A stretch of 64,000 nucleotides of DNA from a virus (IMGVR_UViG_3300035698_017437:32001-96000); one strand, 5' to 3'; positions 4,468 to 54,561 are shown, counted from the first letter of the stretch. Notes: generated by a model not told the origin, from the letters alone. Numbers and translations are program-made.

Positions 4468-4758
4468 ATGAAAATTGGTGAAATGTTAGAATGTATTATT
4501 GAAGGACTGAAATGCGCTAGATCCGGTTGGAACGGTAAAAATCAATTCGTTGTTTATATGTCTGCTCTAAATCTACCACCTTTCAATACCCAAGATACAA
4601 ATAGGAAGGTTAATGATAGGACTGCCAAGTGGATTGGAGAAGATAAACCCTTAAATTCTCAACCATATATTGCTTTATATAATACTCAGGGATTATGGCA
4701 ACCTGGTTGGGTTCCATCTATATCCGATCTCCTAGCTGAAGATTGGGAGGTTGTATAA
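4468..4758 (+). CDS. DUF2829-family protein (Tad2-like nucleotide-signal sponge)
   Basis: ARSGWNGKNQFV and WVPSISDLLAEDWEVV are the DUF2829 signature. Confidence 0.8.
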   Translation: MKIGEMLECIIEGLKCARSGWNGKNQFVVYMSALNLPPFNTQDTNRKVNDRTAKWIGEDKPLNSQPYIALYNTQGLWQPGWVPSISDLLAEDWEVV

Positions 4759-5114
4759 TGTTTAGAATGGAAGATATTGGAAGAATTTGCTATTTAGCAA
4801 ATAAGATGTATTGTGAATCTATAGGAGATAAATCCCAAACATCTTGGGCTTTGTGTGGACCAGAAATTCAAAAATCTGTTGTAAATGGTGTTAAATATAG
4901 ACTTGTAAATCCTCTTGCCACTCCAGAAGGAACTCATGAGAATTGGTACAAATACAAGAAAGATCATGGATGGGTATATGGAGAAGTGAAAGATGGTGAA
5001 AGGAAAACCCATCCTTGTATGTTACCATATGATGAATTGCCTATAGATCAAAAAATTAAAGATGATATTTATGTTTCTGTCTGCGATGCTATGATTCCAT
5101 TTCTTGAAAAATAA
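4758..5114 (+). CDS. Phage RyR-domain protein
   Basis: HENW..YK..HGWVYGEVKD...KTHPCMLPYDELPIDQKIKD; ATG at 4758 overlaps the upstream stop. Confidence 0.85.
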   Translation: MFRMEDIGRICYLANKMYCESIGDKSQTSWALCGPEIQKSVVNGVKYRLVNPLATPEGTHENWYKYKKDHGWVYGEVKDGERKTHPCMLPYDELPIDQKIKDDIYVSVCDAMIPFLEK

Positions 5115-5143
5115 GAGTTGATATTTTTCTTGAATTATGTTAT

Positions 5144-5181
5144 ATTGAAGGAAACAATATTATTTTATTGTTTCCTTCAAT
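5144..5181 (+). promoter_or_regulatory. Perfect 16-bp hairpin upstream of the gp43 RBS (candidate operator)
   Basis: ATTGAAGGAAACAATA (5144-5159) / TATTGTTTCCTTCAAT (5166-5181); AAGGAG RBS follows. Confidence 0.55.
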
Positions 5182-5200
5182 TCGTTTTTAAGGAGTATAT

Positions 5201-7801
5201 ATGTCCAATTTCACATTCGTGGGTAAAAGGGGGAATTCCTTCCTTGTCAGAGAAGTATCAAAGTCTTGTCGCAAAACTCATAAAATAAAAAGCTCAAATT
5301 TATCTCTATATTTGCCATCAAAAGAGGAATCTGAATATAAATCTTTTGATGGGAAAAGAAATCTGGAGAAGGTTGAGTTTGATTCTATTATAGATATGAG
5401 AGAGTTCATAGAGGATAATGGAGGAATTTCAAATTATCCTTTATATGGACAATCAAATCCGGTGGCTCAATGTATAGAAAATCGTTTCGGTAAACAAACA
5501 TTTGATATAAATGATTATCTTATATATGTTATTGATATTGAAACTGGTAGAGATCCAGAAAGGGGATATGCTCCTTCTATGGAACCTTTCAATGAAATAA
5601 CTCTAATCCAACTTCATAATAGCAAGACAAATACATATATTGTTTTTGGTACTGAACCTAATTTCACTCCAAATAAAATGGAAGGAAAGAATATTGTTTA
5701 TCGTTCTTGTGAAGATGAAAGAGAAATGTTGTTGAAATTTGTTCAATATTGGATGGGAGATTATCCGGATATCATTACAGGATGGAATATAGATTCATAT
5801 GATATGACCTATATATCTAATCGTTTGTTGGTCGTGTTTGGAGAAGAAAAAGGAACGAGTCTACGAAAGAATCTTAGTCCATTCAATAATGTTTGGATGA
5901 GAGAAGTGAAAAATTCATTTGGACAAAAAGAAGAGAAATGGACATGGACAGGAATAGTTTGTCTTGATTATCTGGCTCTATATAAAAAGTTTTCTCAAAA
6001 CAGTAGAGATTCATATAAGTTGGATAATATTGCCAATCTTGAATTGGGAACAAAGAAAATTGATTATTCTGAAGTTGAAAATCTTGAAGTTTTGAGATTG
6101 ACAAATTATCCCAAGTTTGTAGAATATGGTATCATTGATTTAGATCTTATTCTTGACTTACAGAAAAAATTGAAATTTCTCAATATTGCTATATCTCTTT
6201 CTTATAAAGCTGGTATCAATTTGGAAGATTCTATGGGAACAGTAGTTCTATGGGAAACAATGTTTCATAATAGATTATCAAGAGATAAAAAATTTATACC
6301 AATTGAACGACCCAAAAGACCTCATGTACCATATATTGGAGCATATGTACAAGATGTTGTCCCTGGTAGATATGATTGGATATTGAGTGTAGATCTTGCT
6401 TCATTGTATCCTCATTGTCAGATGCAATCCAATATCTCTCCTGATAAATTGATTGAAAATCCTCACCAAGAGTTATTGGATTTTCGGGATCAATTGAATA
6501 GTCAACCTATAAATGATCCTATTCATGGAAAAGTCTTAGGTTCTATAGATATGTTGTTACATAAAAAGATGGATACTTCTATATTACGCAAGTATCAGGT
6601 ATCTTTGACACCTAATGGACAATTCTATAAAAAAGATGATATTGGCTTTATTCCTAAAATTCTTAAGGAAGTTTATGCTGAAAGAAAAGCCATAAAGATA
6701 GAAATGATCAAAAAGAAACAAGAGTTGGAAGATACAACAGATCCTATTTCAAAACATAAATTGGATTTTGAAATATCTGCTCTTGATGCTGAACAGATGG
6801 CATTGAAAATTATGATTAATAGCGCATATGGAGCATTAGGAACAAAATATTTCAGATTTTATGATCCAAGAAATGCTGAAGCGATTACTTCATTGGGTAG
6901 AGTAGCAATCCAATGGGTGGCAAGGGATATCAATAATTATATAAAAAGTATTGTTCCTGATATTACTACCGATTCTGTTGTATATACAGATACAGATTCA
7001 AATCTCATTTGTCTTTCTCCTTTAGTGGAGAAATTCTTCAAGGGGAAATCAAATGCTTTCATTAGGGATGCTTTAGTTTCTTTTGGTAAAGAAAAACTTC
7101 AACCTATTATGGATGAAAGTTACAAGAAGTTAGCCATATATCTCAACTCTTATGAACAAGCAATGATCATGAAAATGGAAGTTGTTTCAGATAAAAATAT
7201 CTTCCTCTCCAAAAAGAGATATATAATGTCAAAGTTGTGGGATGAAGGAGTGACTTTCACTGAACCTAAAATGAAAATTATGGGTATAGATGCTATCAAA
7301 TCATCTACACCACCTCTTTGTAGGAAATATTTGACAGATATTATCAAAATCATTTTACATGGAGATGAGGAATCTGTCCAAGATTTTGTAAAAGATTTCA
7401 AAGAGAAATTTTATTCTGCTGATATTTCAGAAATATCATTCCCTAGGTCAGTAAATAACATGGAAAAATATGAAGATTCTATGTTGATATGTAAGAAAGG
7501 AACTCCTATTGCTGTTAGAGGAGCTCTTGTGTATAATCACTTCCTCAATAAACTGAATATCACAGAAATTGAAACAATTAAAAGTAGGGATAAAGTTAAG
7601 TTTATTTATTTGAAAATTCCTAATCATTATAAACATAATGTGATTTCATATGTAAATTCTATACCGAAAGAATTCCCTCATGTTCCTATTGATTATGATA
7701 TCCAATTTTATAAATCCTTTTTGAAACCTGTGGAGGGTATTCTAAATCCTATCGGATGGGAACATGAAAAGACAAATACATTAGAATCATTTTTCAGTTG
7801 A
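5201..7801 (+). CDS. gp43: Family B DNA polymerase
   Basis: Exo DIET, GWNIDSYD, SYKLD; polymerase DLASLYP, KIMINSAYG, YTDTDS; C-terminal clamp-binding TLESFF. Confidence 0.97.
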   Translation: MSNFTFVGKRGNSFLVREVSKSCRKTHKIKSSNLSLYLPSKEESEYKSFDGKRNLEKVEFDSIIDMREFIEDNGGISNYPLYGQSNPVAQCIENRFGKQTFDINDYLIYVIDIETGRDPERGYAPSMEPFNEITLIQLHNSKTNTYIVFGTEPNFTPNKMEGKNIVYRSCEDEREMLLKFVQYWMGDYPDIITGWNIDSYDMTYISNRLLVVFGEEKGTSLRKNLSPFNNVWMREVKNSFGQKEEKWTWTGIVCLDYLALYKKFSQNSRDSYKLDNIANLELGTKKIDYSEVENLEVLRLTNYPKFVEYGIIDLDLILDLQKKLKFLNIAISLSYKAGINLEDSMGTVVLWETMFHNRLSRDKKFIPIERPKRPHVPYIGAYVQDVVPGRYDWILSVDLASLYPHCQMQSNISPDKLIENPHQELLDFRDQLNSQPINDPIHGKVLGSIDMLLHKKMDTSILRKYQVSLTPNGQFYKKDDIGFIPKILKEVYAERKAIKIEMIKKKQELEDTTDPISKHKLDFEISALDAEQMALKIMINSAYGALGTKYFRFYDPRNAEAITSLGRVAIQWVARDINNYIKSIVPDITTDSVVYTDTDSNLICLSPLVEKFFKGKSNAFIRDALVSFGKEKLQPIMDESYKKLAIYLNSYEQAMIMKMEVVSDKNIFLSKKRYIMSKLWDEGVTFTEPKMKIMGIDAIKSSTPPLCRKYLTDIIKIILHGDEESVQDFVKDFKEKFYSADISEISFPRSVNNMEKYEDSMLICKKGTPIAVRGALVYNHFLNKLNITEIETIKSRDKVKFIYLKIPNHYKHNVISYVNSIPKEFPHVPIDYDIQFYKSFLKPVEGILNPIGWEHEKTNTLESFFS

Positions 7802-42912: not shown

Positions 42913-43365
42913 TTGAAAACATATAAAAAATTTATCACAGAAGCCGCAAAAGTTGTAGGATTTGTAAAATTACCAAAAGAAAAAGAATCCACTTGTGATT
43001 CTTCAAAATTTATTTCAAAAAAACAGTTATCATCATTAGAATCAATATTGGATAAATTGTTTGCCAATTATAATATTGATGTTGATCTAATGAAGAAACA
43101 TTTCGGCCAACGTATTAATGATTGCCGGAATAAAGAACAAATAACAATTCCAGAATTGAAGAAAATATTCTCTTCTCTTCATAAAAAATTTGGTAAAGAA
43201 TTAAGTAACGCAAAAGATATGGAAGCTGTTCTTACAGATATTCAATCCAAAATCAATATTCCTTTTGTTCTGAAACTAGACAAGAAAGGCGAGTTTGACC
43301 TGGTGGCAAAAACCGTAATGAGAAAACCAAATTTCAAAACTCCAGATAAAAGATACAAAGTATAA
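42913..43365 (+). CDS. Putative virion-internal protein
   Basis: MKTYKKFITEA leader; HFGQRINDCRN..VAKTVMRK; AAGGAG RBS. Confidence 0.55.
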   Translation: MKTYKKFITEAAKVVGFVKLPKEKESTCDSSKFISKKQLSSLESILDKLFANYNIDVDLMKKHFGQRINDCRNKEQITIPELKKIFSSLHKKFGKELSNAKDMEAVLTDIQSKINIPFVLKLDKKGEFDLVAKTVMRKPNFKTPDKRYKV

Positions 43366-46223
43366 AATAAAGTAAAGAAAAGTGTTGACTTTCTCTGTGG
43401 GAAATGTTATAATTACATATACCAAATGAGAAAGACTAATTTAGATTGAGGCTTCAAAATGAATAGAGAAACACTTGAAAATCTTCTTTGCGAGTTATCC
43501 ACTTCTGCTATGTCCTCGGACCGATGGTTAGAGTTTTTTGGTATTATTTATAAAGCAGAAGTTGGTGGCATCGAAGTTGCTCCAATGATTTCGCCCATTA
43601 CCAATTACAATTATGAGAATTGGAAAAAACAAAAGGGGTATTTAGTATGAAAGATAAAGAATTTGCGGTTACCTATTATGATGAACAAGGAGAGATCCAT
43701 AGTCATTATGTGATGGGTGAGAATAAAATGGATGCTATGGATATATTTGACCAGAGGACAAATGGTAAATATATTATTGAGACTGTAAGAGAAACCTATC
43801 AAGGAAATTGATCATGAATATTTATATGCCCATTCTTATGTTTTGGATTTCAATATCAACAATTCTAATTTTGGTTGCGAGGAGCCTATGAAATTCAAAC
43901 GTCAAAGTACAACTAAAATCAAAAAGTATGAAGGTGAAACCTATATTTTCAAAAATGGTGTAGCAAAGGTTCCTAAAATGTTCCATAGACCTAGACGTCC
44001 TTATACTATTACTTTGAAAGAATTCGAGGAGTTTACAAATGTTTAATAGAGAAAGTGATGAAAGATTGTTGATTCAGTTTGTTGAAGATCAGGGTTTTGA
44101 TATTCCAGAATTAGTGGAAGCGGCTAGACGACTAAGTGTAGGTCTTGATGATGGACTACAAGATTATTCTGTTCCTTTTGATGAATCAGCCTCAACCGGT
44201 AAGGTGAGGAAAGGTATACAGTAGAAATATTTTATAGAACTGGAAACTCATTTGGTTCAGAAGAAAGAACAGAGAAAATAGGTTGTTGTTGGGAGTCTAA
44301 AGATTTAGCCAGAAAAGCCTTACAATCAATAAAGGAACATTATTCTCTGTTTGATAGTTGTGGTGATAAAATAAAAGATAAGAAACCAAGTGATTTTGAT
44401 TGGTTTGACAAGACTTATTCTTCACAGAGGATTCTAGTAGAACTAGATGATGGAACAAGAACTAAAATATCCGTTTTTTGGATTGGTTATTTTGAGGCAT
44501 TACTTTCAGCAAAAATAGTGGTTGATGAGGATGATGAGGATGATGAGGATTGTTTTGAAACGGGTATATATATTAAGGATTGACTTCTGATTCTATACAT
44601 GTTATAATAGTGTATACCAATATCTAATTCAAAATGGAGAATATGTCTATATGACCACATTATATATTGTAAAGGCTGAAGGTTCCTCCCAATGGGTAGA
44701 ATCCTATACAAATGGTCCTTACGCAAAAAAAGTAGCGAAAAAATTATCAAAGAAACATAAACCAATAAAGTATGTAGTTGAAAAGAGGAGATAAAAATGA
44801 AGAAAACTGTTGCCCTTTCCTGTCTAGTAGGATTATTCTTATTTTCCTGTGAAACTTGTCCAGCTGTTACCTGTAAAGTAATCAATGTATTTACTACTCA
44901 AACAGGTCAGGTTGTCGCTAAAGTTTCATGTGAAGATTATATTGGTGAACCAGGAACTTTGATCAAAGTCAGAAAAGCAAAGAAAGAACCTCAAATAGAA
45001 GGATGTTGATATGAGTTGGATGAAAAGTCCTATAGCTCACACATGGGAAGGTTGGAGAGGTATTGAAAAGTATAATAAACAAAATCATCCCTTTCAATAT
45101 TTCTTTAGAGAATCTATTCCTGATGTTTGTGAAACGTTCAAAAGTAGAGTAAACAATTTTTATTGGAATATTCAATATAGACTGAATCCAAATCATAGAT
45201 ATCATATGGTTCATACAGGATTCAAGCCTGGTTATTACGATATCCCTGAATTACTTTTAGCATCTTCATTTTCTCTGTTGGTCAGATATGTAGAGGATGA
45301 AAATGGTTTAGACTATATTGATGAATCTTCCTGTTTTGACGATGATGTGAATGATTTATATATTTGGTGGACAGAAGTATATCCTTCATATGAATCTCAA
45401 AGAGATGATTTATATGAATTATTCAAAGGTAATTCTGAAGATTTTTTTGGAGAAGATCCTAAGGAATACAAGGAATACAATAATAAATTATTCAACCGCA
45501 TAAATCATATGGAATCTTTATGGGATAATATTGCTGACTATCAATTGAGGAGATTGATAGGGTTAAGATTGAGACTTTGGACATAGTCATTATTTGATAG
45601 CTGAGGATAAAAAAGATACACATTATGGAATAAAGTGAATTTAGTTGTTGACAAGTGATCCTAAATATGTTATAATACGTCATACAGAAAAGAATAAAAC
45701 AAACATTCAAAATGGAGAACAAAATGAAAAACTGTGATATTAAAGTAGAAGATTTGACCTCAAGCCAAGTCTATTGTCTTGGTAGTGTTTCGTTTATTAC
45801 TCTTGATTATATTAGAAAAGTTTATGATGTAAAGAGCACTAGACGATTTGAAAAAAAGAAGATTACTATAAACATTATTGATTTTCTTGATTCCTCAACT
45901 ACCAACTCAGAGGAATCTTTACAAGATTTTATAAGCATTTTGATCAAGAAACTCCATGATGGATTCAGTATCATAAAATCAGATTCCGGGTATGATACGG
46001 ATATATTGATTGAAAAAGAATATGACTCTGAATATTTAGAAGATATTCTAAAAACGGAAATGAGATTACAGAAAAAAGTGAAAAAATTGATGGGTTCAAA
46101 ACTCAAAGATTATAAGGATTATGAGAAATACCTTGATTTGAAGAAAAGATTTGAAAATGAAGTTAGTTGTTGACTTTTCGTTCCAGAAATGATACATAGA
46201 ATAAATAAAGATAAAGTTTCTAA

Positions 46224-48162: not shown

Positions 48163-49254
48163 ATGAGAAAGTTAGCAACAATCAGAAGAATTGAAAATAT
48201 CCTGCCTATTCAAGGAGCTGATAGGATTGAAGTAGCTTATATTGATGGTTGGGAATGTGTTATCAAAAAAGATCAATTCATAGTAGGTGATTTCTGTGTT
48301 TATTTTGAAATTGATTCTATGCTTGATAAAGATAATCCCGTTTTTGAATTTATGGCTCAACGAAAGTTTAGAGTAAGAACTATCAAACTGAGAAAACAGA
48401 TTTCTCAGGGACTTGCTCTTGCTCTTGAGGATTTCCCTGAATTGAAAAATCCTATAGTTGGTGATGATGTAACCTCTCTACTGAAGATCACTAAACATGA
48501 TCCTCATGCACAAAGAGAGCGAAATCAACAGGTTAGCACTAGGAAGAAGCCTCCATTGCGCTGGATGCTCCGATTTGGTGTAGGACGATATCTACATCAA
48601 AAGATTTGGAACAGAGCTTCAGGATCATGGCCCGGACTTTTTCCCAAAACCGATGAAGAAAGAATTCAAAATCTTTCTCTATATAATCTTGAAAGTATTC
48701 TCAAAGATGAAGTGGTTGTTACAGAGAAATTGGACGGACAATCAGTATCAATTTTCTATGATAGAAAAGCAAAAACGGGATTCTTCAAACGAGGAGTTTT
48801 TGGAGTATGCTCTAGGAATATTTGGTATAAAAACCAAGCAAATAATAATTGGTGGAATATAGCAATCAAAGAAAACCTCCAATTGACTCTTCCTGAATAT
48901 TGTAATCAAGAAAAGATGTCGCTTGTCATTCAAGGAGAAATAGTAGGAGAGGGAATTCAAAAGAATAGATATAATCTGAAAGGACAACATCTATATGTTT
49001 TTTCTGTATATGATATTGAAAATCAGAAATATATTGATCCAAAAGATGAGACTTTATCTTTGGGTTTGACAAGAGTTCCAGATCTAGGAACTTGCGTCTT
49101 AGAACCAAATAAAAAACTTATCCTTGAATTCGCTGAAGGTAAATCTGTAGTTGGATCTAAATCTCTTAGAGAAGGAATTGTTATTCGTTCTGAGAAAGAT
49201 CAATCCAAATCATTCAAAGCTATTTCTAATAAATGGCTTCTCAAAAATGAATAA
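48163..49254 (+). CDS. RNA ligase (Rnl2/DRB0094-like)
   Basis: RKLATIRRI..ADRIE, QISQGL, KTDEERIQN, EKLDGQS, QGEIVGEGIQKN, REGIV, FKAIS. Confidence 0.9.
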   Translation: MRKLATIRRIENILPIQGADRIEVAYIDGWECVIKKDQFIVGDFCVYFEIDSMLDKDNPVFEFMAQRKFRVRTIKLRKQISQGLALALEDFPELKNPIVGDDVTSLLKITKHDPHAQRERNQQVSTRKKPPLRWMLRFGVGRYLHQKIWNRASGSWPGLFPKTDEERIQNLSLYNLESILKDEVVVTEKLDGQSVSIFYDRKAKTGFFKRGVFGVCSRNIWYKNQANNNWWNIAIKENLQLTLPEYCNQEKMSLVIQGEIVGEGIQKNRYNLKGQHLYVFSVYDIENQKYIDPKDETLSLGLTRVPDLGTCVLEPNKKLILEFAEGKSVVGSKSLREGIVIRSEKDQSKSFKAISNKWLLKNE

Positions 49255-51112: not shown

Positions 51113-51199
51113 AGAAGATGCCGTCCGTTGGTGGACAGCTAGACTTGAAATCTGGTGGCGTGTTAGAAATAGCATGGGGTTCAACTCCCACATCTTCTT
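51113..51199 (+). tRNA. tRNA-Ser(UGA), no encoded CCA
   Basis: GAAGATG/CATCTTC, CTAGA-CTTGAAA-TCTGG, long variable arm. Confidence 0.8.
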
Positions 51200-51259
51200 C
51201 TTATAGAAAATAAATGTTGACAAATAAATGTTGACATATCATTTACAGGGAACTTTAAT

Positions 51260-52894: not shown

Positions 52895-53499
52895 AACCCA
52901 TGAGACTTTCAAAAACAAGTGATTATATTGAGATTGATGAAAATGAAGATGTTGAAATTCTGTTCCTTTCAGATGAAGAATGGCAATCAAGTTTGAGTAA
53001 TAAATCTGCTTTAGCTTCTGTAAAGGATGAGGTTGCCTTTGCTGTAATGTCTGAGGAAATAAAATATTCAAGAATATTCGTCAATATAGATAAAGTTTAT
53101 GGAGTAGATTATGAGGTTGTTATTGCCCATGAATATTCACATATTCTTTTTCATGAAGTAGATGAAGAGAAAACAGATAGAAATTGTTTTCAATTTCTGG
53201 TAGAGAGTGAAATTGGTTGGTTGAAAAGTCAATGGGAAATCCGTCATGGACATAAATTTGAGGAGATTTAGAATGTTTGAAAAAGAACCTAAAGGATCAA
53301 TGTTTTTCTATTCTGGAAACACAAACAGAAAAAATAATGAGAATTGGTTCCAGTTCTCAGGAATTTACCAATTACAGGAAAAAAGGAAAATTGAAGATGT
53401 TTTCTGTGACATAATCAAACTCAAAGAAGATGAACTGAAAGAACAAGTTGTCCTCACAAGCATGAATAAAATATAATAATATCTTTGGAGGATATTAAG

Positions 53500-54141
53500 A
53501 TGAGTGAAATTTCAATTACAAGAGCTTTAGTGAAAATCAAAACCCTTCGGTCTAAGATAGAAAAAGGATCAAAGGCAATGGCAGTTTGTTCAGGATATCA
53601 AATTCAGGGACAACCAATTATTACAAGAGCTGGTCAAGTAAAAAATGCTGATATTCTTCAAACAGATATTAGTAAACGATGGCAAGCTGTGAATGATTTG
53701 ATGGATCTATATATCAAAATTCGAGAGGAGATCCAGAAATCTAATGCCGTTACTTTAGTTACAGTTGGAAAAAATAAAATGACCGTAGCAAAAGCCATTT
53801 TCATGAAAGAATTAATCTCGGATGAACGAGTTCCCCTTGCCTCTGTTGTTCTGAAAGATATCAATAACTCTAAACTACTGGTTCAGAAAAGGATAGAGGA
53901 TAATGATGAACGACTAACCGAACTTATCAAAAGCTCATTTCAAGGGAAATCAACTAAAATCTCTGATTCTGAATTTGAAGCAATTGCCAAACCTTTCAAT
54001 AAGAATAACAAAGTTGAATTCATTGATCCTTTTGGTATGGAAACAAAAATTGAAAAGGTTATTAATCAAAATGAAGAATTCCTTGAGGATATTGATGTTG
54101 TGTTAAGTGAATCTAACGCAAAAACAACGATTGAAATATAA
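53500..54141 (+). CDS. Conserved long coiled-coil phage protein
   Basis: SITRALVKIKTL..SNAVT..MTVAKAI..IDP..FLEDIDVVLSESNAKTTIEI; GGAGG RBS. Confidence 0.65.
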   Translation: MSEISITRALVKIKTLRSKIEKGSKAMAVCSGYQIQGQPIITRAGQVKNADILQTDISKRWQAVNDLMDLYIKIREEIQKSNAVTLVTVGKNKMTVAKAIFMKELISDERVPLASVVLKDINNSKLLVQKRIEDNDERLTELIKSSFQGKSTKISDSEFEAIAKPFNKNNKVEFIDPFGMETKIEKVINQNEEFLEDIDVVLSESNAKTTIEI

Positions 54142-54175
54142 GGGGAGTCATATCTAACAGATATAAATAAGTACA

Positions 54176-54476
54176 TAAAGTATTATATTGAAACTGACTA
54201 AAAAGATATTCTCCTCAAATTGGAATAAGAGGTTAACATAAATTCCGCAACTAATTGCCTCAAACGCAATCTATTGATACAGCCTATAAAGCTGAACCGT
54301 TTCTGTAAAGTTTACAAAATCAAAAGATTAATGTTCAACAATTAGCGAGAAAAGTTTATACAATTACACCAAGAAAAATTAGAGAATAAAGATTGATTGA
54401 ATCTTGTGTATGGGTTTAGTAGGAAATTAGAATATCACGTCCTCAGTCAGTACCATCAAGCTGATAGAATACTTTA
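54176..54476 (+). ncRNA. Candidate ~300-nt structured RNA
   Basis: Three nested long-range helices (9, 7 and 8 bp); TATAAATA at 54162; no ORF. Confidence 0.6.
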
Positions 54477-54484
54477 CTTTTTAT

Positions 54485-54561
54485 GGCGCAATAGCCCAAT
54501 TGGCAGAGGCAATGGTTTTAGAAATCATGTGTTGTAGGTTCAACTCCTACTTGCGCTACCA
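54485..54561 (+). tRNA. tRNA-Leu(UAG), short variable loop
   Basis: GGCGCAA/TTGCGCT, ATGGT-TTTAGAA-ATCAT, CCA. Confidence 0.88.

Follow-up and report, generated by a model that had tools for sequence, protein, structure and literature searches.

A 64,000-nt stretch of DNA from a large virulent phage (hereafter the window; bases 32001-96000 of the IMG/VR virus record IMGVR_UViG_3300035698_017437, which holds 141,960 bp and is 78% complete) carries a structured RNA belonging to a widespread phage family, the members of which are 275-448 nt in length. Counted from the first letter of the window, this member occupies positions 54176-54476 of the (+) strand, 3′ of the gene P0001, whose product belongs to the phrog_1491 / T5.085 protein family. 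We consider it reasonably probable, if well short of certain, that this is a new phage RNA family which is co-transcribed with the T5.085-family gene and acts with the encoded protein as a ribonucleoprotein. A new RNA-protein machine is our leading reading because the linkage to this one unstudied protein is kept even where the order of gene and RNA is flipped. A preliminary description of the locus, made from the DNA sequence alone, had already tied a structured RNA to the upstream gene. The relatives assembled here, in which conserved and covarying structure is found 3′ of homologues of that gene, bear this out, and the comparison with Rfam which it suggested matched no known family.

A covarying, pseudoknotted fold

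The weight of the structural argument rests on relatives, because the same elements recur in them at the same places with different sequences. The set used for statistics comprised 41 non-redundant full-length copies. In the plan common to the family, the two termini pair to form P1, the 3′ arm of which starts right after an invariant GGCUG. On the 5′ side, a (C)GAAA(A)C sequence leads into P2, whose partner lies just 5′ of the P5 3′ strand, and a further 5′ segment, PKa, pairs with the loop of the P6 hairpin in the 3′ domain. The loop of the P3 hairpin pairs with a few bases 3′ of an A-rich linker, often UUAA, to give an H-type pseudoknot. The middle of the molecule consists of a variable arm and then of an array of (U/C)AAAGNU heptads closing in U-N-A-A-A-U. 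P5 joins CC-NNN with NNN-GG. Because P6 and the P2 3′ strand lie between its two strands, it crosses both P2 and PKa. P1 is stacked on P2, and the core is locked by P5, PKa and the H-type pseudoknot at P3, the three crossing interactions. Five helices, of which three cross, and junction bases that do not vary put the fold on a par in intricacy with a riboswitch or a small ribozyme.

Pairing in P1 and P5 was assessed on a plain MAFFT alignment of the 41 full-length copies, not fitted to structure. The paired columns were complementary in 87.3% of cells, compared with 54.3% in shuffles (0 of 500 shuffles reached as high a value) and 36-42% when the partners were slid by one to three columns. The covariation score was 0.788 vs. 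0.208, and changes on both sides were seen in 16 of the 17 pairs. At each of two positions in P5, four pair types are represented, and the helix is broken in a single copy out of 41. Duplexes formed by cognate P1 arms had a mean energy of -19.6 kcal/mol, against -5.5 for non-cognate arms, the cognate pair ranking first in 33/41 copies, and a GAA lies no more than 5 nt from the P1 arm in 37/41. Helices of at least 6 bp were found for P2 in 27/41 cognate pairs (8.4% of non-cognate pairs) and for PKa in 22/41 (17.7% of non-cognate pairs). An unrestricted pseudoknot search proved too permissive to part real sequences from shuffled ones, and was replaced by a search restricted to the homologous place. 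There, the H-type pseudoknot reached p ≤ 0.05 relative to shuffles in 20 of the 41 copies, where two were expected (Fisher p 2e-12); across copies its linker is 54% A.

Each of the family-wide elements, namely P1, (C)GAAA, P2, PKa, the H-type pseudoknot and the heptad array, is found at the homologous place in the window (Table 1). The covariance model R1, which describes the 3′ domain and was built from 40 relatives with the window copy excluded, matches the window at 54377-54469 (+) with 35.4 bits (E 1.5e-5; next match E 1.4) and finds a single copy in the whole genome record of ~142 kb. The consensus scored by R1 reads U-N-A-A-A-U-CC-NNN ... NNN-GG-CUG, to which the window conforms; relative to the family it has AGCUG for GGCUG and GAAUCU for AAAUCC, so that a C-G pair is now U-A. 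Taken alone, the H-type pseudoknot of the window gives p = 0.17. Three nested helices named in the preliminary description are present and prove to be P1, P2 and PKa of the family, while its CCTC/GAGG hairpin with GGAAT/ATTCC loop pairing is P3 with the H-type pseudoknot and recurs in relatives. A further helix which it had drawn between TACACCAAGA (54365-74) and TCTTGTGTA (54402-10) has to be given up: it competes with the conserved P5 and has no counterpart in relatives.

The RNA is read in the direction of the gene, because three observations agree on that strand. Of the two strands, the gene strand gives the more stable P1 in 31 copies and its complement in seven (means of -19.6 vs. -15.3 kcal/mol). 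The columns counted contain many U-G and G-U pairs, the asymmetry of which favours the gene strand. Several relatives carry an intrinsic terminator on the (+) strand 3′ of the RNA, in place of the tRNA. The start of P1 lies a median of 9 nt 3′ of the stop codon across the family. A consensus scan of the window showed neither a promoter-like site in the interval from the gene's stop codon to the RNA nor a terminator ahead of the tRNA-Leu gene which follows; TATAAATA at 54162, singled out in the preliminary description, had no -35 partner in the promoter scan. The simplest reading is that the RNA would be co-transcribed with the protein gene, its 3′ end being trimmed by tRNA-Leu processing here and set by termination elsewhere, and it may accumulate as a discrete stable species.

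Linkage to a T5.085-family gene and the encoded protein

A tblastn search placed homologues of the window protein, at 23-37% identity, in 697 phage records. Their carriers include T5, T5-like, Pseudomonas, Vibrio, Klebsiella, Bacillus and Erwinia phages and a C. difficile phage; Salmonella is also represented. A gene-free gap of 300-560 nt comes right after the stop codon in most of 80 IMG/VR loci anchored on the protein, and the same gap is seen in three further homologue contexts. R1 matches 79 of 83 protein-anchored loci, always downstream of the gene and on its strand. Among named phages, R1 scored 55 bits in C. difficile phage LIBA2945, 40 in T5, 29 in Salmonella phage 7-11 and 25 in Pseudomonas phage Pyxpy02, with a weak match in Erwinia phage AH06 (17.2 bits, E 0.05). 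In T5 itself, T5.085 lies among early genes and tRNAs and is followed by a gap of 363 nt without an annotated RNA (NC_005859); the T5 copy of the RNA occupies 43139-43497 of that record, on the minus strand. T5, a model phage for seventy years, carries a copy of this family unannotated in its record. The pair of gene and RNA also occurs in a Sporosarcina chromosome (a 2.8-Mb contig; L092:4001-4930 (+), R1 30.9 bits).

The linkage is also recovered when the RNA rather than the protein is taken as the starting point. A bare sequence pattern retrieved 115 stretches from the viral collection, and R1 confirmed 12 of the 80 examined; in all ten confirmed RNAs with enough flanking sequence, the protein gene adjoins the RNA on the same strand. 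In the complete 165-kb phage L159 the order is reversed, with the RNA at 4958-5345, the gene at 5380-6039 and 50 nt after the gene. That RNA and protein work together is suggested by this survival of the linkage through rearrangement, which we regard as the best evidence available here. Joint action of the two is the most likely interpretation, and the protein may bind the RNA directly.

The partner protein matches the phrog_1491 profile over its full length (E 9.6e-42; residues 1-213 on positions 2-209 of 211). Searches of Pfam, NCBIfam and PADLOC gave no family for it, and no function could be assigned from the PDB by sequence, from Foldseek (PDB, BFVD) or from the ESM Atlas; matches in BFVD and the ESM Atlas were to uncharacterized phage proteins only. 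The preliminary description had called it a coiled-coil protein, for which a helical bundle with small beta hairpins, as found in 3kdq, is the better description (AlphaFold2 model, predicted local distance difference test score (pLDDT) 87.8). The only clear structural relative is 3kdq_A (VIA Z 12.3, 151/152 residues aligned, root-mean-square deviation 4.8; next match 8.4), with further support from Foldseek (E 1.3e-3) and a profile comparison (E 0.013). 3kdq is a conserved Corynebacterium diphtheriae protein of unknown function; the two have the fold in common, but their identity is 13% and the phage protein is longer by about 60 residues. The earlier suggestion that the protein acts as an oligomer is in keeping with modelling of two copies, which predicts a symmetric homodimer (score 0.70, best control 0.00; at least 99% of contacts shared between runs; partner pLDDT at least 89). 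The score mark used was attained by 20 of 30 proteins solved as pairs and by one of 23 solved as single chains. Positions 8, 14, 19, 22, 75, 103 and 153 are conserved as K/R in the family. Both phrog_1491 and T5.085 bear the label 'tail fiber protein', a name which we regard as unsupported: the neighbours of the gene, both in T5 and in the window, are tRNA genes and genes of nucleic-acid metabolism, and the fold searches gave no tail-fibre structure among the matches listed, which does not of itself exclude such a role.

Several observations were made beside homologues of the gene. The annotated 61-aa coding sequence AH06_218 (L089:2531-2716) of Erwinia phage AH06 overlaps the weak R1 match and looks doubtful, as does the 'smpB' label of a 74-aa product in Pseudomonas phage Pyxpy02 (L091:1212-1436), which has no Pfam support. 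The Sporosarcina pair has an ECF sigma factor, a YoqH-family gene and metabolic genes as neighbours. In Salmonella phage 7-11, and there only among the loci examined, a ProQ/FinO-domain gene (PF04352, 36.8 bits, E 4e-9; L090:796-1500 (+)) abuts the start codon of the homologue. The 100-kb phage contig L013 has a tmRNA-like gene directly upstream of its T5.085 homologue (L013:1534-1941 (+); RF00023, 45.1 bits, gathering score 47, E 9.7e-15), which gives the module two large RNA genes. Just upstream of the L159 RNA is a further G+C-rich stretch of 450 nt (4510-4957 (+)), free of open reading frames and with no Rfam match at E ≤ 0.01. RNA ligase genes occur in the neighbourhoods of relatives as well as in that of the window.

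Heptads, the variable arm and competing explanations

The A-rich units of 7-8 nt which had been picked out in the window are real features of the family. Distances between successive AAAG motifs peak at 7 nt (65 cases), with 24 cases at 14 nt and nine at 21 nt, and a side peak appears at 8 and 15 nt (8 nt, 15 cases); there are about 8-14 units of the consensus heptad in each RNA. The array in the window is less strongly periodic than that of the family (z 2.0, strongest period 7). We know of no other RNA with a regular single-stranded array of 7 nt. The heptads may provide a binding platform for the phage protein or for a host factor.

The variable arm accommodates tRNAs and tRNA-like inserts. 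Entire tRNAs are embedded in the RNA of five relatives (L006, L010, L024, L084 and L085). Three others, L159, L013 and L021, carry a permuted tRNA-like module scoring 41.6, 36.7 and 29.5 bits with the Rfam model of YrlA, below its gathering score of 69, and the same module was recognized by eye in the arm of L014. The arm of the window has small hairpins only, with neither a tRNA nor a YrlA-like insert. Bacterial YrlA is a tRNA mimic which is bound by Ro60 and encoded near it (PMC4201824). No TROVE/Ro60 gene was detected in six phage genomes (that of the window and those of five carriers; four at least 99% complete) by searches which did detect positive controls, and the Rsr-binding motif GNCGAAN0-1G is found near the 5′ end in just 3 of the 41 copies. 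Since TROVE gene and Rsr motif are lacking, the likeness to YrlA concerns one module and does not amount to membership.

A cmscan search of Rfam 15 left the RNA core unmatched, at a cut-off of E ≤ 10 for the window and T5 copies and of E ≤ 1 for 12 relatives; what was returned otherwise were tRNAs, chance snoRNA and miRNA matches with E > 1, and the sub-threshold YrlA matches on optional inserts. The lack of RNase P, tmRNA and group I signatures reported in the preliminary description holds for the Rfam models, none of which match. A tmRNA would have a tRNA-like acceptor and T arm made by its ends, together with a tag reading frame; ARAGORN likewise finds none at the locus, and the 7-nt period does not represent such a frame. 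Type III toxin-antitoxin systems of the ToxIN kind have tandem repeats of ~34-36 nt upstream of a ToxN-type endoribonuclease; here the repeats measure 7 nt and usually lie 3′ of the gene, and the protein belongs to no PADLOC family, so that this candidate was set aside.

GOLLD and ROOL, the Rfam models of which do not match, come nearest in kind to the new family, being large structured phage RNAs of unknown function which lie by tRNA genes and sometimes enclose a tRNA (PMC12286853). They differ in being RNA-only assemblies (PMC12286853), unrelated in sequence and fold, whereas the new RNA is smaller, has a heptad array and is tied to one protein gene. The present family adds a third case, after these two, of large phage RNAs among tRNA genes which are able to enclose tRNAs, and all three may share a common theme. 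YrlA with Ro60/Rsr (RF02553; PMC4201824) is similar in its end-paired stem, in the tRNA-like module of some members and in the RNA-ligase genes nearby, but Y RNAs have no counterpart to the pseudoknotted core or the heptads, and the new family has no Ro60 gene. CsrB/RsmZ with CsrA, and the TRAP-binding leader with its 11 spaced triplets, also present evenly spaced short single-stranded sites, of a sort on which many copies or subunits of one protein could assemble; they differ in motif (here AAAG at a 7-nt period), in the folded core and in the partner, and binding is here only proposed. Stable or abundant RNAs beside tRNAs have been described in T5 (rnaX) and phage K (lnc001/lnc002; PMC9241854). 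R1 finds nothing at the two phage K loci, the setting of which is alike but the family different. T5 rnaX is a different locus, 719 nt in length and beside tRNA-Arg (NC_005859 40848-41566, minus strand; L086:349-1067), 1.6 kb from the T5 copy of the new RNA; it is annotated as a 'stable RNA with unknown functions'. In a viral catalogue of 10,006 candidate RNAs (PMC10690425), the main text, as distinct from the supplementary tables, does not name the family. Open-access papers on T5.085, on the non-coding RNAs of T5 and on large RNAs of phages yielded no description of it.

As we envisage it, the RNA would be transcribed with the T5.085-family gene, on the gene strand, then trimmed, in the window through tRNA-Leu processing, and would form a ribonucleoprotein with the dimer-forming helical-bundle protein. 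The folded core would serve as the specific handle and the heptad array as a multivalent platform for protein copies or a host RNA-binding factor, while the variable arm would project from the core, bearing a tRNA or tRNA mimic in some relatives. A more specific version is tentative: the core of this particle of a large virulent phage might recruit the protein dimer, the heptads might load more copies or capture a host factor or nuclease, the exchangeable arm might carry the tRNA or its mimic, and the whole might act early in infection on tRNA or RNA metabolism, or against a host defence which targets RNA.

Several points weigh against a ribonucleoprotein. The (+) strand of the window copy, folded as a single sequence, does no better than shuffles (minimum free energy z -0.51, with -2.43 for the (-) strand), for which reason the window alone could not decide for a structured RNA. 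The protein family is not basic (median isoelectric point 6.3) and no recognizable RNA-binding domain was found in the protein. The heptads could serve a host factor instead of the phage protein. Lastly, adjacency is also compatible with a cis-regulatory element. In that case the fold would be an untranslated-region element on the protein gene's own mRNA, setting its stability or translation, for example through binding of the protein to its own message, with no role in trans. The short distance between stop codon and P1, the lack of a separate RNA promoter in the window and the near-perfect linkage to one gene would all follow, and the L159 RNA, 35 nt ahead of the start codon, would suit a leader. 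Set against this, a single fold would need to function both in front of the gene and behind it, and 275-448 nt with three crossings, heptads and embedded tRNAs or mimics far exceed the needs of known phage autoregulatory sites. On balance we judge regulation in cis unlikely, though worth keeping in view. We give slightly less credence to a decoy, in which the heptads would titrate a nuclease or a single-strand RNA-binding protein of the host, with the protein encoded next to the RNA being a helper or unrelated in function. Evenly spaced A-rich single-stranded units numbering 8-14, in a neighbourhood rich in tRNA and RNA ligase, are what such a sponge might look like, and many heptads of the form AAAG-A/U-U-U resemble, by our own reading, the RN|WUU preference reported for RNase E. 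However, the hosts concerned (E. coli, Pseudomonas, Vibrio, C. difficile, Sporosarcina) differ in their RNA decay machineries, and the strict linkage to one phage protein would be left unexplained.

The remaining alternatives carry less weight. It is improbable that the RNA is a Y-RNA-like tRNA mimic which serves in the quality control or repair of RNA, the T5.085-family protein standing in for Ro60. The long stem formed by the ends, which Y RNAs also have, the YrlA matches of three inserts, and the RNA ligase genes nearby, together with the encoding of YrlA near Ro60 (PMC4201824), speak for it; yet those matches all fall short of the gathering score and concern an optional insert which the window does not have, and both the Ro60 gene and, in nearly all copies, the Rsr motif are missing. 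A ribozyme, such as a much reduced RNase P-like RNA serving phage tRNA clusters, is more doubtful still. Its topology would be alike (P1, P2, a hairpin, and a long-range helix with its 3′ strand between P2 and P1), and the RNA adjoins tRNAs and sometimes contains one. The flanking motifs AAAUCC / GGCUG presumably recall the P4 strands AAAGUCC / GGCUU of E. coli RNase P, which we take as a lead only. However, neither the window nor T5 gives a match to an RNase P or ribozyme model at E ≤ 10, the 5′ strand of P5 follows the heptad array rather than the P3 hairpin, and the G of AAAGUCC is replaced, so that the likeness is one of topology. We give least credence, and very little, to an element acting at the DNA level (replication-origin iterons or a recombination site) or to chance inverted repeats. 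The region does hold short A-rich repeats and inverted repeats, and in the window the (-) strand has the lower folding z. Nonetheless, compensatory changes keep five helices, pseudoknots included, over 41 diverged copies, the G-U asymmetry favours the (+) strand, and the helical repeat of DNA is not matched by a period of 7 nt.

The window and its surroundings

The window has a G+C content of 33%, and its (+) strand carries nearly every gene. Thirteen tRNA genes lie within 46-55 kb, and an RNA ligase gene (PHA02142 + RNA_ligase) at 48163-49254 and an Eco57I-type methylase gene are near the RNA locus. When the locus was compared at the DNA level with the phage collection, tRNA similarity alone emerged, without a close relative. 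The stretch free of open reading frames which had been noted after the stop codon is confirmed at 54142-54484 (343 nt), the tRNA-Leu(tag) gene starting at 54485.

Table 1. Elements of the RNA locus and its immediate flanks, in window coordinates.
Feature	Position	Strand	Basis or remark
Promoter-like site (TTGTCC, 18 nt, TATAAT) before the protein gene; candidate start of a transcript of gene and RNA (and tRNA)	53448..53477	+	consensus scan only
Partner protein gene P0001, 213 aa, phrog_1491 / T5.085 family	53500..54141	+	GGAGG 8 nt upstream
Structured RNA, 301 nt, from first to last base of P1	54176..54476	+	
P1 5′ arm TAAAGTATT(ATAT), partner 54464-54476	54176..54188	+	12/13 complementary; P1 covaries in 41 relatives
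Conserved GAAAC junction into P2 5′ strand ACUGACU (54193-99), partner 54445-54451	54190..54199	+	
PKa 5′ strand GAUAUUCU (DNA GATATTCT), partner = P6 hairpin loop 54429-54436	54205..54212	+	
H-type pseudoknot: P3 CCUC 54213-16 / GAGG 54229-32; loop UGGAAU 54221-26 pairs with AUUCCG 54242-47 over A-rich linker UUAACAUAA	54213..54247	+	same motif, same place in relatives
Variable region, small hairpins	54248..54304	+	
About 13 A-rich units of 7-8 nt, ending in the U-N-A-A-A-U motif (window: UGAAU)	54305..54402	+	
P5 5′ strand CUUG, partner CAAG 54457-54460; crosses P2 and PKa (pseudoknot)	54403..54406	+	
Hairpin P6 (AGGA / UCCU); loop holds PKa 3′ strand AGAAUAUC 54429-36 (DNA AGAATATC)	54421..54443	+	
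P2 3′ strand AGUCAGU	54445..54451	+	
P5 3′ strand CAAG and invariant CUG immediately 5′ of the P1 3′ arm	54457..54463	+	
P1 3′ arm (ATAG)AATACTTTA	54464..54476	+	
tRNA-Leu(tag), 8 nt 3′ of the RNA	54485..54561	+	tRNA search; maturation of its 5′ end by RNase P may define the RNA 3′ end

Between the stop codon and P1, at 54150-54164 (+), lies a perfect hairpin (AUAUCU / loop AAC / AGAUAU) which has no counterpart in relatives. Two tRNA genes deserve mention. In the window, tRNA-Ser(tga) at 51113-51200 (+) also matches the tRNA-Sec model (39.4 bits, gathering score 47), probably just through its long variable arm. In the tRNA cluster of another phage, ARAGORN predicts a tRNA with the anticodon UUA, which reads the UAA stop codon (L068:762-834 (+)) and which may be a phage suppressor tRNA.

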